Origin: Escherichia phage vB_EcoP_P64441
Sequence record: PQ847473.1
Direction: 5' to 3' (one strand)
Length of the DNA: 42,960 nt
Shown one piece after another: positions 20,490 through 27,741 of the stretch. Each line of letters begins with the position of its first letter. Position 1 is the stretch's first letter. The position numbers and the translations under genes were made by a program. The notes under the pieces were generated by a model. That model made no database searches and was not told where the DNA came from. It was given only the letters and a program-made list of their open reading frames with translations.

Positions 20490-21071
20490 TTATTCGCTTA
20501 CATTAACCCAATCAGGACGCTCACCCTTACCGCAGTAAAAGTCAATCAGGTCTAGTAAGCGTGGATAATACTTCAGCGAACTCTTACCGTCCATTTCCGC
20601 AACCTGGCGCTTACTGAAGCTGCGCCACTCTGCTGCCGTATGCTGCTGACATCCTACACGCACTATGTCATTACAGATACTAATGAAGTACGTTTCTCCG
20701 TATATAATGACAGTCTTGGCGCCGCGCAGGTCAGCGCGGCGCAGGTTAGCGCTGCGCAGGTCAGCTTCGCGCAGGTCAGCGTCGCGCAGGTCAGTGCCGG
20801 TCAGGTCAGCGCCGCGCAGGTCAGCGCCGCGCAGGTCAACGTCGCGCAGGTCAGCGCCGCTCAGGTCAGCGCCGCGCAGGTCAGTGCCGGTCAGGTCAGC
20901 GCCGCGCAGGTTAGCGTAGCGCAGGTTAGCGCCGCGCAGGTCAACGTCGCGCAGGTTAGCACTGCTCAGGTCAGCGTCGCGCAGGTCAGCGTCGCGCAGG
21001 TTAGCGCGGCGCAGGTCAACGCTGTGCAGTCTTCCTAACTTATACTTTTCGCAGATTTCTTGATAGTTCAT
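20490..21071 (-). CDS. Pentapeptide-repeat protein 2 (about 22 A(D/N)LxG/R-type repeats plus a roughly 75-aa non-repeat C-terminal domain)
   Basis: '[56 protein letters not shown]...' is a continuous pentapeptide repeat as in Qnr/MfpA DNA mimics. Encoded by a 15-bp tandem DNA repeat. The N-terminus is paralogous to 27205..27741. Confidence 0.8.
20718..21030. repeat. 15-bp tandem repeat array (coding; pentapeptide repeats)
   Basis: Units such as 'gcgcaggtcagcgcc' / 'gcgcaggttagcgcc' repeated about 20 times. Confidence 0.9.
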
Positions 21072-21111
21072 AGTTAACCTATATGTAAAGAATTATTTAT
21101 TACTGGACAAA

Positions 21112-21160
21112 TCCTGATATTCATGATATAATAAAACCCTTCCTACGCAGGGCTACACCT
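21112..21160. repeat. Copy B of the conserved ~45-bp element (inverted relative to 1418..1482)
   Basis: Plus strand 'catgatataataaaacccttcctacgcagggctacacct' is the reverse complement of the match at 1438-1482. Confidence 0.5.
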
Positions 21161-21347
21161 ACTTCTCCACAACTTCATACTCAGAGGGTGCAAAAGTAAA
21201 CTCCTCATCTTCATCTCCTAAATCAACCTCTCCTGTGTCAGGGAAGAACTCATATACTTCGTGAACACTGCCTACCGGGAATCTATCCATGTACTCGAAC
21301 ATCTCGCCTACACCATATGCACTGTAGTTAAGAATGCGAACTTTCAT
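21159..21347 (-). CDS. Hypothetical small acidic protein (62 aa)
   Basis: 'DTGEVDLGDEDEEFTFAPSEYEVVEK' is strongly acidic. First ORF downstream of promoter P1. Confidence 0.4.
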   Translation of the reverse strand: MKVRILNYSAYGVGEMFEYMDRFPVGSVHEVYEFFPDTGEVDLGDEDEEFTFAPSEYEVVEK

Positions 21348-21579: not shown

Positions 21580-21607
21580 ATTCTACAGCATTCTAAAACT
21601 GTGTCAA
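21580..21607 (-). promoter_or_regulatory. Sigma70-like promoter P1 (TTGACA-16 nt-TAGAAT) reading the minus strand
   Basis: Minus strand 'gtgTTGACAcagttttagaatgctgTAGAATtc'. Sits between the DNA polymerase gene and the 62-aa ORF. Confidence 0.5.
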
Positions 21608-21619
21608 CACTTATTTTAA

Positions 21620-22807
21620 TTAAATTACCATCTCCCCTTTAAAGGACTTACCAATCTCACATTCAGCGGGAAACTTAACTTCAGACAGTATGCCAAAGTT
21701 AGGCCACAGCTGTAGCATCCTATCACGGGCTCCTTCCATAACGTTTTTGATGAGCTTACCCGCCTTACGGGCCGTCTCTTCGTCAGCACAATCTATGTAC
21801 AAACAGTCATGGACGGTAACCAGCAAACACCATTTACCCCCCATCCAATTGTCAGCTATACCAGCCCTCATAGCCATTCCGGTTGCAATAAGCATAAGCA
21901 GGGAACCTGATCCTTGAAACGGATAGTTAGCCATCTCTGTGGGCTTAAAGTCCATTACCTGCTTACCTTCGCGCCACACCGGCTTCTGACGGAAGCGGTA
22001 GCGAGTACCGCAAGGCGTAGTGAAGTAGCCCTCGCGATAGATACGCCAGCTGCCGTCATCTGCTTGTTCACGGCGTATAGGCTCCAGCAGCGCAGTACGG
22101 TTTACTTCAGCTGCAATGACATCCCTGTACTTAATAGACTCAGGGAATAGTGCCTCCTCGTTAGCTAAGAACTTCTCAGCGTCGGCTAAGCTAGCACCTG
22201 AGGCGAACGCCAGTCCTTTAGCGGATGCTCCATATTGTGCTGCGAAGCTGAAGGTTTTGATGGCTGTTCGCTTCTTCTTCCATCCTTTATGGTCCGGTGC
22301 ATCCAGGTTATGGCAAAGCTCGTAGACTTCTTCATAAGGCATACCTTCTTGGAATGCTAGACGATAGCAGTGCATATCCGTACCGGCTTCAAGCAAGCTC
22401 AGTAATTTCTTATCACCAGTGATTACACAGCCCATTACAACCTCCATAGCTGAGTAGTCACACTGTGCAATCATACCCTGCTCACCATAGCGGCTACGCA
22501 GAATCTGCTTAACCTTAGACTCACGCGGCAGCTGCTGCATGTTCGGGTTAGATGTTGACAGGCGTCCGGTAGTAGTTGAGCAGTGATTCGACCTGTGGTG
22601 AATGATGCCAGAACCATCTGCTGATGTAGGGATGACGTACGGCAGCATGCCCGTCACCTTACGCAGACTGCCATCCTTATTAGTCTCACGTACTTCATAG
22701 AAGCCGAGGTCCTTCTGGCGTGTAGTCATTTCTTTGTATGTTTTGAAGAAGTCTGAAGCTAACTTAGCCATCTTGTTCCATCCCAATAAAATAATGTGCA
22801 AGGTCAT
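21620..22807 (-). CDS. DNA polymerase (family A), polymerase-domain ORF
   Basis: 'GRLSTSNPNMQQLP' (pre-motif A), 'CDYSAMEVV' (motif A, DYSxxE), 'RTAIKTFSFAAQYGAS' (motif B), 'VTVHDCLYID' (motif C, HD). Overlaps the upstream exonuclease-domain ORF by 44 nt in the +1 frame. Confidence 0.8.
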   Translation of the reverse strand: MTLHIILLGWNKMAKLASDFFKTYKEMTTRQKDLGFYEVRETNKDGSLRKVTGMLPYVIPTSADGSGIIHHRSNHCSTTTGRLSTSNPNMQQLPRESKVKQILRSRYGEQGMIAQCDYSAMEVVMGCVITGDKKLLSLLEAGTDMHCYRLAFQEGMPYEEVYELCHNLDAPDHKGWKKKRTAIKTFSFAAQYGASAKGLAFASGASLADAEKFLANEEALFPESIKYRDVIAAEVNRTALLEPIRREQADDGSWRIYREGYFTTPCGTRYRFRQKPVWREGKQVMDFKPTEMANYPFQGSGSLLMLIATGMAMRAGIADNWMGGKWCLLVTVHDCLYIDCADEETARKAGKLIKNVMEGARDRMLQLWPNFGILSEVKFPAECEIGKSFKGEMVI

Positions 22808-23915
22808 TCATTGCGTCCATTCCTGTGCTGTACACAGGGCTACCATCCGCTAATGTTTGAGCACCTTTGTATTCACCGCGGTCTCCGTACTTCTCACGTA
22901 GAGACTGAGGTAGGTCCTGAATATTAACCAGCCCGTCGAAGCGGTACAGGCGTTCACCCCACTTCATAGCTTGCTCGTCAGTGTCTACTTTTATGAACTT
23001 AGGCATACCCTTATTACGCCCAGACTTATACACCCCGTCCTGTACTTCCTTCTTAATGTATTTAGGTGGGTCATAAGGAACCTTGCACTTGTACTTAACC
23101 GTGCCGCCATACACTAAAGCGGACATATGATAACCGCTATTCCATTTAAACTCGAAGCCCTCTGGCAATTCTGGCAAGAATGTCTGAAGTAACTCCCGCA
23201 GATTCCGAATAGCGTCCTCCTGCTCCTTCTGATTAGCTCTGGCTGTAGGCATATCAACGTACACGCCATTGAACTCACAGTATGCCAGAGCTGCGACTGC
23301 CTCCATCCTTTCCCAGACCATAGGCATCTGTCCACGTTCCGCAAATACTGCGCATTGCCCGTAGAAGCACAGCGCTGTGTTGACTATGTCACCGTTAGGC
23401 CCTGTTAAGTATTCATGTAGTAGCATAGGGTCAATGTCTGCTGTCAGAACCCCTTGCTGCCATAGTAGCTTAACGCCGTCGACTTTGTGTGACCCGCCAT
23501 ACTTAGGGGCAGTCTCATCTAGTGACGGGTAAAGATTCTGGAAGTCGCTGGCAATGTACTCGCCCTGCATAGTATCAAAGACTCGACCTCCTCGTCTAAG
23601 GAACGACTCGAACTGCTCACGGGCAAAGGTCAGCGCCCAGCTAATCTCGTACGCTGCGTTGTGCGCTACGATTAACCACGTATCATCCTGAATAGGTAGC
23701 CACTGCTTAGGGTCAGCTGCTAAGAAATCAGTTCGGGATTCATAGCGTACACTCTGCACCTCGCTGCACTGTACAGTCCCATCCGGCATAGTCCTATCGA
23801 TGCGGAAGCCTGATTCTACGATGTAGTTATCAGGGCAGTACGGAGTTGCGACCCCGCCGTAGTACGGATGATTTTGAGTTTCAATATCCCAAATTAGAAT
23901 GCTACTCATTTCCAA
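22764..23915 (-). CDS. DNA polymerase (family A), N-terminal 3'-5' exonuclease-domain ORF
   Basis: 'LIWDIETQ' is an Exo I (DxE) motif. Contiguous with the polymerase-domain ORF. The called start at 23915 is TTG; a likely ATG start lies at 23909 (MSSILIWDIET). Confidence 0.7.
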   Translation of the reverse strand: MEMSSILIWDIETQNHPYYGGVATPYCPDNYIVESGFRIDRTMPDGTVQCSEVQSVRYESRTDFLAADPKQWLPIQDDTWLIVAHNAAYEISWALTFAREQFESFLRRGGRVFDTMQGEYIASDFQNLYPSLDETAPKYGGSHKVDGVKLLWQQGVLTADIDPMLLHEYLTGPNGDIVNTALCFYGQCAVFAERGQMPMVWERMEAVAALAYCEFNGVYVDMPTARANQKEQEDAIRNLRELLQTFLPELPEGFEFKWNSGYHMSALVYGGTVKYKCKVPYDPPKYIKKEVQDGVYKSGRNKGMPKFIKVDTDEQAMKWGERLYRFDGLVNIQDLPQSLREKYGDRGEYKGAQTLADGSPVYSTGMDAMNDLAHYFIGMEQDG

Positions 23916-27204: not shown

Positions 27205-27741
27205 TTAGATACTAACCCAATCAGCGACGCGCAGGTCAGCGTCGCGCAGGTCAGTGCCGGTCAGGTCAGCGCCGCGCAGGTCAGCGCCGCGCAGGTTAGC
27301 GCCAATCAGGTTAGCGTCGCGCAGGTTAGCGCCGCTCAGGTCAGCGCCGCGCAGGTTAGCGCCGCGCAGGTTAGCGCCGTGCAGGTCAGCGCTGCGCAGG
27401 TCAGCGCCGCTCAGGTCAGCGCCGCTCAGGTCAGCGATGTTCAGGTCAGCGTAGCGCAGGTCAGCGCCGCGCAGGTCAGCGCCGCTCAGGTCAGCGCCGC
27501 GCAGGTTAGCGCCAATCAGGTTAGCGTCGCGCAGCTTAGCGTCGCTCAGGTCAGCGACGCGCAGGTCAGCGTCGCTCAGGTCAGCGTAGCGCAGGTCAGC
27601 GCCGCTCAGGTCAGCGCCGCGCAGGTCAGCGTCGAGCAGGTTAGCGCGGCGCAGGTCAGCGCCGCACAGGTCAGCGCCGCACAGGTCAGCGCCTTCCAAG
27701 GATTCCAACTTGTATTTATTACAGATATTGTCATAAGTCAT
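27205..27741 (-). CDS. Pentapeptide-repeat protein 1 (about 30 contiguous pentapeptide repeats)
   Basis: '[44 protein letters not shown]...' runs almost to the C-terminus. Likely start is the ATG at 27741 (MTYDNICNKYKL) with a GAGG ribosome-binding site; the track ORF extends to 27792. Confidence 0.8.
   Translation of the reverse strand: MTYDNICNKYKLESLEGADLCGADLCGADLRRANLLDADLRGADLSGADLRYADLSDADLRVADLSDAKLRDANLIGANLRGADLSGADLRGADLRYADLNIADLSGADLSGADLRSADLHGANLRGANLRGADLSGANLRDANLIGANLRGADLRGADLTGTDLRDADLRVADWVSI
27225..27695. repeat. 15-bp tandem repeat array (coding; pentapeptide repeats)
   Basis: About 30 units of 'gcgcaggtcagcgcc'-type repeats. Near-identical at the DNA level to the array at 20718-21030. 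Confidence 0.9.

Follow-up and report, generated by a model that had tools for sequence, protein, structure and literature searches.

PRP2, a pentapeptide-repeat protein with a widespread phage C-terminal domain, as a candidate anti-defence protein of Escherichia phage vB_EcoP_P64441

The 42,960-nucleotide (nt) sequence of Escherichia phage vB_EcoP_P64441 (PQ847473.1), hereafter the window, contains on its - strand a gene at 20490..21071, named PRP2 here, that encodes a pentapeptide-repeat protein of 193 amino acids (aa). On sequence grounds, PRP2 belongs to a family of proteins in which a repeat solenoid is followed by one conserved C-terminal domain, and which includes gp60 of Vibrio phage 24, the orf232 proteins of P22-like phages, and phrog_37032 and its relatives. 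The domain is the constant part of this family and the repeat array is the variable part. Because the studied relative, gp60, probably aids phage 24 against the defence system Sucellos, PRP2 may likewise be an accessory anti-defence, or host-interaction, protein, and we regard the chances of this as about even. The window also encodes a paralogue, PRP1, which consists of repeats without the domain. As far as the searched literature shows, the delineation of the domain, the lack of any entry for it in databases of domains and structures, and its several unrelated solenoid partners are new. The anti-defence phenotype of one homologue was already known, and the P22-like homologues have long been annotated.

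The PRP2 gene and its predicted structure

PRP2 is an intact open reading frame (ORF) with an ATG start and a stop codon at 20490..20492. It coincides exactly with the - strand ORF that an earlier note, made from the letters alone, had described as a pentapeptide-repeat protein, and the translation is identical to the string given there. The protein consists of three parts, all encoded on the - strand: an N-terminal cap (aa 1-12, 21036..21071), a pentapeptide-repeat solenoid of 21 units in ~5 coils (aa 13-118, 20718..21035), and a conserved, non-repeat alpha/beta domain of 75 aa at the C-terminus (aa 119-193, 20493..20717). When set out in a register table, the repeats are 21 A(D/N)L(R/S/T)x pentapeptides in perfect register with zero interruptions. 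The Pfam model PF00805 matches ~aa 14-118 (E = 4.2e-38) and scores 128.9 bits, well over its gathering cut-off of 20.2, and in the DNA, Tandem Repeats Finder resolves 20719..21022 into 20.3 tandem copies of a 15-bp unit, with 82% matches. By these measures, PRP2 is a bona fide pentapeptide-repeat protein. Its net charge of -2 and pI of 5.8 are sequence-level figures only.

AlphaFold2, run on the full protein with a 150-sequence alignment, predicts a solenoid and a separate alpha/beta domain with a mean predicted local distance difference test (pLDDT) score of 92.6, rising to 95-98 in the repeats. In the model, the cap contains a helix at aa 3-10 and the repeats form a right-handed quadrilateral beta-helix. 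The domain is modelled with four short strands (120-123, 130-133, 136-139, and 142-145) and three or four helices (146-151, 154-180, and 187-190), and when predicted alone it reaches a pLDDT of 93.7 and a predicted template modelling (pTM) score of 0.82. A Foldseek search of the PDB with the full model returned pentapeptide-repeat solenoids exclusively, with ~100-120 residues aligned, and the top matches were Np275/276, synthetic beta1 solenoids, Rfr32, HetL, QnrB1, and MfpA, with AlbG also returned. The domain itself had no match in the PDB, and sequence profiles found no solved relative of it. The BFVD search returned uncharacterised family members exclusively. Matches to consensus tetratricopeptide-repeat (TPR) profiles were rejected as an artefact in which weak matches are summed over tandem repeats.

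A family defined by its C-terminal domain

A tblastn search of GenBank phages with the 76 C-terminal residues of PRP2 identified 150 records, with E values to family members of 1e-17 to 1e-32. The domain is 74% identical in Escherichia phage vB_EcoP_PAS7 (Autographiviridae, Slopekvirinae), the nearest database relative of the window (~78% identity over 68% of a 25-kb query). Identity is 64% in the P22-like Salmonella phages ST104 (orf19), L, epsilon34, and g341c (E ~1e-29), 61-63% in the Edwardsiella phages PEi21 and MSW-3, and 50% in the Vibrio phages 24 and CP-T1, and weaker likeness is seen in Caulobacter, Acinetobacter, and Rheinheimera phages. Additionally, the domain alone matches phrog_37032 (E = 2e-31), and all of its PHROG matches are labelled "unknown function."

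Among 1.84 billion cluster representatives, a profile built from eight of the tblastn relatives (A1) matched 2,501 clusters (50% identity) at E <= 1e-3, including 883 at E <= 1e-10. In the best 150 of the 2,501 matches, the domain is located at the C-terminus. Thus, what the earlier note had taken for a unique domain is instead widespread in phages and prophages, and the remote-homology search yielded a large family. That the C-terminal region might be a frameshifted continuation of the repeats had also been considered in that note, and this is ruled against by its 64% identity to the P22-like proteins and its confident predicted fold. In neither the isolated domain nor any of 150 family members is the domain covered by a model in Pfam, NCBIfam, or PADLOC, and PADLOC-DB gave zero families at E <= 0.01 for PRP2, PRP1, and the isolated domain. 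The literature search found no paper describing the C-terminal domain itself. An Rfam scan of the window gave no match.

The ~70-aa domain carries the family signature G-C-(Q/E)-x-H ... W-x2-F-x4-(I/V)-x2-M-D-G-x2-A-x2-F-(W/Y). In PRP2, G140-C141-Q142-x-H144 is encoded at 20640..20654 (-) and is followed by W149, F152, and M160-D161-G162 on columns that are invariant or nearly so in the alignments A1, A2, and A3; V157, Y168, and Y169 also occupy such columns. The domain had been described as containing Cys and as ~75 aa long, and it is indeed genuine and non-repeat. Of the three Cys residues of PRP2, C132, C141, and C179, however, just C141, within G-C-Q/E-x-H, is conserved in the family. A catalytic or zinc-binding Cys-His site was judged unlikely, as several members have Tyr or Phe in place of the signature His and a single Cys is conserved. 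Specifically, gp60 of phage 24 is functional with Tyr at this position, which argues against a catalytic or metal-binding His.

A constant domain behind variable repeats

The sequences that precede the domain vary in both type and length. According to Pfam, 103 of the 150 representatives have pentapeptide repeats upstream of the domain, 16 have YdcK-type beta-solenoid repeats, seven have bactofilin-like repeats, and a few have hexapeptide repeats. A degenerate DNA pattern of the signature was found in at least 120 viral contigs, and 118 viral-contig loci were checked. Pentapeptide arrays are present 5' of the domain in 68 cases, and other arrays in this position include G(D/N)AxVx hexapeptides, Cys-rich CSDCSR/CTDCMR repeats, VKGYQR hexapeptides, and a TSSPSIETRD decapeptide. 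In PRP2 and in nearly all of the 118 loci, the domain follows the repeats in frame. Short "stand-alone" versions of the domain were considered and rejected, as nearly all of them proved to be loci cut within the gene, with in-frame repeats upstream. Some of the arrays are long: in the viral contigs L039, L055, and L100, and also in L063/L064 and L122, the domain is fused to long CSDCSR/CTDCMR (tripeptide/hexapeptide), VKGYQR-type, or TSSPSIETRD arrays, and these three repeat types have no Pfam assignment.

When one genome from each of 100,044 species was scanned, the signature pattern occurred in just 48 places, mostly in Pseudomonadota and prophage-like, and for this reason the family gene is essentially a phage gene. 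A Roseovarius metagenome-assembled genome (OX638333.1; L154-L158) has five separate signature matches in one chromosome, far more than any other genome scanned. Some viral contigs, such as L099, carry two family genes three or fewer genes apart.

The number of repeats also differs between close relatives. The PAS7-like lineage includes versions with 4, 8, 16, 21, and ~33 units, and Salmonella prophage versions of 129 and 214 aa have identical ends. Phages L and ST64T differ by one 15-bp unit (PMC8022706). Part of this variation may be assembly collapse. In PAS7 (OQ921331; L001, 5850..6595), the orthologue of PRP2 contains a single frameshift within the 15-bp array, which leaves a 173-aa ORF that turns into 'LTCAALTC...' and a separate 75-aa ORF bearing the domain. 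This split is likely an assembly error or a pseudogene. At the same locus, an antisense ORF at 6087..6590 (+) carries the label 'modular polyketide synthase', which is an artefact, the repeats having been translated from the wrong strand. As the PAS7 frameshift and the antisense "polyketide synthase" illustrate, 15-bp arrays are a recurrent cause of mis-assembly and mis-annotation.

A possible role in counter-defence

The family member with functional data is gp60 of Vibrio phage 24. Sucellos (SclA/SclB) is a RexAB-like abortive-infection cassette of a V. cholerae chromosomal integron, and homologues of it are frequent in Salmonella prophages (Darracq et al., bioRxiv 10.1101/2024.07.02.601686). 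All six of six phage 24 escapers of Sucellos were mutated in the gene for gp60, 24_60, the changes being Y112R and N110/N115D, and a phage deleted for 24_60 was much more sensitive to the system. The authors describe 24_60 as a pentapeptide-repeat protein and postulate an anti-defence role for it (bioRxiv 10.1101/2024.07.02.601686). In a BLASTP comparison, PRP2 and gp60 are 54% identical over 127 aa (E = 3e-42), and the alignment covers both the repeats and the domain.

The repeat region of 24_60 is mis-assembled in the reference, according to the same authors (bioRxiv 10.1101/2024.07.02.601686). In the GenBank gp60, residues 110, 112, and 115 are K, L, and Y rather than the reported N, Y, and N. 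The sole N-x-Y-x-x-N in that sequence is within ANLYGANL, at residues 40-45, and the offset is exactly 70 aa, or 14 repeats. Because N110, Y112, and N115 fit only this repeat, the escaper changes would be located on the surface of the solenoid. Both substitutions, Y to R and N to D, shift the gp60 repeat towards ADLRG, the dominant unit of PRP2.

The surroundings of the homologues differ from phage to phage. In ST104, the homologue is in the early-left operon, between ral and a group comprising orf18, gene 17, c3, kil, erf, abc1, and abc2. Two DNA methyltransferases precede it in Vibrio phage 24, a Type I M-like methylase in Acinetobacter phage Acba_13, and DNA polymerase I in Caulobacter phage RapA, and in PEi21 it is a short way downstream of the primase gene. 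In metagenomic temperate phages, homologues are found in nin or immunity-proximal regions. When the three genes on each side were clustered for ~160 loci, no recurrent partner gene emerged, and the largest cluster was a CI-like repressor in 14 loci. The family gene is a single-gene module, found where phage genes for host interaction and counter-defence accumulate.

What we infer for PRP2 is an anti-defence role, a target, a division of labour between solenoid and domain, and a time of expression. PRP2 would be expressed together with the DNA-metabolism genes and would fold into a short, rigid pentapeptide rod of ~5 coils, bearing ladders of Asp and Arg and ending in the compact alpha/beta domain. 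It would then bind and neutralise a component of a host or prophage defence, the likeliest being the subunit that senses nucleic acids in a RexAB/Sucellos-type abortive-infection system, and the infected cell would thereby stay alive until progeny have been produced. We favour a Rex-like sensor because it is the only target with data and because the slot after the polymerase in T7 holds genes 5.5 and 5.9. Under this mechanism, the surface of the solenoid would provide specificity and could evolve quickly by point changes and by the gain or loss of 15-bp units. The C-terminal domain would supply a constant function, namely capping combined with oligomerisation or with docking on a conserved partner.

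Several points weigh against an anti-defence role of this kind. The functional evidence for the family comes from one preprint, on a phage of a different host and on a protein with 50-54% identity to PRP2, and the role of 24_60 is the authors' postulate from genetics (bioRxiv 10.1101/2024.07.02.601686). PRP2 is nearly neutral by its sequence-level charge, unlike the classical acidic DNA mimics. The same domain is found behind unlike solenoids (right-handed pentapeptide, left-handed hexapeptide-type, and Cys-rich), and such different geometries fit poorly with a precise mimic of DNA shape, so that the domain rather than the rod is possibly the active part. Additionally, the repeat count of PRP2 was possibly altered by assembly, and a DNA search of 5,426 complete E. 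coli genomes returned no match to the domain.

A broader proposal is more tentative, and we consider it possible although clearly less probable than the anti-defence role itself. The 75-aa module may represent a new fold that serves as the constant 'handle,' for docking or oligomerising, throughout a very large class of counter-defence proteins in phages, where interchangeable and unrelated solenoids would provide an interaction surface whose length and exposed residues can be rapidly re-tuned through slippage of short repeats. PRP1 and PRP2 could then be two differently tuned rods, without and with the handle, that share repeat DNA and exchange units by recombination.

These observations give a sharper definition to phage genes labelled "pentapeptide repeat-containing," which have been left without further annotation, since a large subset of them carries this one domain. 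Moreover, evasion of Rex-type exclusion is poorly understood beyond T4 (rII) and T7 (5.5), and the family offers a testable candidate for it in phages of enterobacteria, Vibrio, Acinetobacter, and alphaproteobacteria. Accessory anti-defence genes, of which PRP2 may be one, also affect the host range of therapeutic podoviruses.

Alternative functions

Of the other explanations, the one that survives best is that PRP2 is a generic DNA mimic, like Ocr and gp5.9 of T7, that inhibits a DNA-targeting enzyme outside the Rex class (restriction-modification, BREX, or RecBCD), with the domain acting as a dimeriser that doubles the length of the rod. The pentapeptide-repeat fold is an established mimic of double-stranded DNA (PMC10886550), and MfpA, Qnr, and AlbG are among the fold matches of PRP2. 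Homologues adjoin ral, abc1/abc2, and DNA methyltransferases, and the syntenic slot of T7 contains the RecBCD inhibitor gp5.9. However, the Ocr-type mimics are strongly acidic, and at the level of the sequence this description fits the acidic PRP1 better than the near-neutral PRP2, whose rod has just ~5 coils. Moreover, the homologue that has been tested counters an abortive-infection system and not a nuclease, and the domain tolerates very different solenoid geometries. Overall, we regard this explanation as unlikely.

The resemblance to Qnr, MfpA, and AlbG could instead mean that PRP2 modulates gyrase or topoisomerase IV and either shuts down or protects the host topoisomerases during infection. 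These proteins share its fold class, phage-encoded gyrase inhibitors are known (PMC10886550), and PRP2 sits among DNA-metabolism genes. While the NCBIfam models for Qnr and MfpA show some likeness to PRP2 (E = 1e-9 to 1e-12), the scores of 30-48 bits are far from the curated cut-offs of 240-500 and reflect generic repeat similarity. The 21 repeats are uninterrupted and thus have no Qnr-type loops, and the protein ends in a 75-aa alpha/beta domain rather than a short dimerisation helix. A role of this sort appears less probable still than that of a DNA mimic aimed at a non-Rex enzyme.

It is also conceivable, but improbable, that PRP2 is itself an exclusion or defence protein that blocks competing phages, as sieB and gene 17 do in P22-like prophages. 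The ST104 homologue is beside sieB and gene 17, family members are frequent near the immunity region of temperate phages, and some defence systems, such as a Hailong-like one (10.64898/2026.02.27.708500), contain pentapeptide repeats. Against this, PADLOC gave no match, and phage 24 itself suffers when it meets the defence without its homologue. PRP2, furthermore, is carried in the replication module of a virulent-type podovirus. Lastly, it is scarcely credible that PRP2 is a non-functional product of assembly or gene decay in a slippery 15-bp repeat, with its C-terminal part fused by chance, for although the PAS7 orthologue and some database members (P0047) are frameshifted within the repeats and the phage 24 reference repeat is mis-assembled, the ORF in the window is intact across the full array, the in-frame order of repeats and domain recurs in nearly all of the viral-contig loci checked, and the domain is both conserved in the P22-like phages and modelled with pLDDT > 92.

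The paralogue PRP1

PRP1 (27205..27741, - strand) encodes a protein of 178 aa that starts with MTYDNICNKYKL. It possesses the same cap as PRP2 and ~33 repeats that continue up to its last residues, without the C-terminal domain. At the sequence level, which is all that the figures describe, PRP1 is acidic, with a net charge of -12 and a pI of 4.4. Since the charges of the two proteins differ (net -12 vs. -2), distinct roles for them are plausible.

The paralogy of the N-termini that the earlier note had reported is borne out, with 8/12 aa and 26/39 nt in common between the caps and a block of 66/66 identical nt, encoding 22 aa, shared by the two genes. The complete identity of this block suggests recent gene conversion between the genes. 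The two copies of the block, at 20766..20831 in PRP2 and 27232..27297 in PRP1, are in direct orientation with ~6.5 kb between them. As a direct repeat of 66 nt, they are a substrate for recombination, which would delete the helicase and DNA polymerase genes in between. The arrays of PRP1 and PRP2 are ~85% identical whatever the register.

The cap, MNY..IC..Y(K/N)(L/V), is common to PRP1 and to the PRP2 orthologues in PAS7, P0001, P0003, and P0048, and that of P0048 (MNYREICKEYKLESL), from a metagenomic relative, is even nearer to the PRP1 cap. The DNA upstream of PRP2 is kept in PAS7, while that upstream of PRP1 is unrelated. PAS7 has no gene at the syntenic PRP1 site, and the related ECO104 4-5-2 lacks PRP2, whose slot comes after the 62-aa ORF and before the phosphoesterase. 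Therefore, both genes are accessory. PRP2 is the older resident of the lineage, being the orthologue of a pre-existing accessory gene that occupies this site in PAS7 too, and PRP1, which lacks the C-terminal domain, is an additional copy. The two copies with different C-termini had been thought to reflect sub-functionalisation. They are indeed related genes, one of which has a genuine added domain, but this is not simply an effector gained by local sub-functionalisation, because the domain is the constant part of the family, PRP2 was pre-existing, and PRP1 is the extra copy.

Genome neighbourhood

The window is a podovirus genome in reverse, with every long ORF on the - strand. In the direction of transcription, the order of genes is DNA polymerase (two overlapping ORFs), a 62-aa ORF, PRP2, a phosphoesterase, others that include the exonuclease, and then RNA polymerase. 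The two polymerase ORFs, at 21620..22807 and 22764..23915 (-), overlap by 44 nt and form a pair of 383 aa and 395 aa. In PAS7, the DNA polymerase is likewise annotated as two coding sequences. A split polymerase, a programmed frameshift, or a sequencing feature common to both genomes could account for this arrangement.

PRP2 had been placed downstream of an internal host-type promoter, P1. A consensus scan does find a putative sigma70-like match, TTGACA-16-TAGAAT (11/12), at 21580..21607 (-), just after the DNA polymerase gene and upstream of PRP2, and this is probably the site meant. A putative terminator-like hairpin with a T-run, found by the same kind of scan and kept as sequence in PAS7, is located at 21135..21154 (-), between the 62-aa ORF and PRP2 and thus between the putative promoter and the gene. 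On the + strand, a further, strong sigma70-like match, TGGACA-17-TATAAT with an extended -10 TG (11/12), is present at 21104..21132, within the intergenic stretch just upstream of PRP2. It is antisense to all phage genes and could be a chance occurrence in AT-rich DNA or an antisense promoter.

The ORF directly upstream of PRP2 (21159..21347, -) encodes an acidic 62-aa protein with the C-terminus ...PSEYEVVE(K/E), and it is kept in both PAS7 and ECO104 4-5-2, even where PRP2 is lacking. In ECO104 4-5-2 (L131, 2217..3401), the gene next after this ORF encodes a protein of 394 aa that does not resemble the phosphoesterase (328 aa) found in the window and in PAS7. Because of this difference, the segment downstream of the polymerase is considered a variable accessory region.

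Comparison with known systems

Qnr, MfpA, and AlbG share with PRP2 the right-handed quadrilateral beta-helix (Foldseek probability 1.0 in the repeat region). In contrast, their C-terminal module differs, PRP2 has no loops, and they are encoded by resistance genes of chromosomes or plasmids, not by accessory genes of phages. In NCBIfam, PRP2 scores 48.3 bits with the MfpA model (cut-off 360) and 45.6 bits with the Qnr model (cut-off 240), and it is not a member of either family.

A close known counterpart is gp60 of phage 24 (24_60 / SBVc24_0060, AIA08749.1), a probable anti-Sucellos protein, which has a short cap, pentapeptide repeats, and the same C-terminal domain as PRP2. Both are encoded by a single gene; that of gp60 is in the early region, and its array is hard to assemble. 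The hosts differ, as gp60 is from a Vibrio cholerae phage while PRP2 is from an Autographiviridae-like enterobacterial podovirus. The caps also differ, the signature His is Tyr in gp60, and the genetic evidence belongs to gp60.

The P22-like proteins orf232, ST104 orf19, and epsilon34 gp42 resemble PRP2 in architecture, in a domain that is 64% identical, and in a varying number of repeats. Unlike PRP2, they are encoded by temperate phages, with ral and gene 17 flanking the gene in the PL operon, and they have another cap (MNSADLSKILEEHKVW). Their annotation is that of a pentapeptide repeat-containing protein of unknown function.

In T7, the slot after the DNA polymerase contains gene 5.5, a requirement for growth on lambda lysogens (PMC11482910). 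No homology between PRP2 and T7 gp5.5 was detected (hhalign probability 0.1%), and the analogy is positional and functional only. Nonetheless, gene 5.5, whose product binds H-NS, and gene 5.9, which encodes a RecBCD inhibitor, are like PRP2 small genes located directly after the DNA polymerase in Autographiviridae, and gene 5.5 counters the exclusion by lambda lysogens (Rex), the same class of defence that gp60 probably counters.

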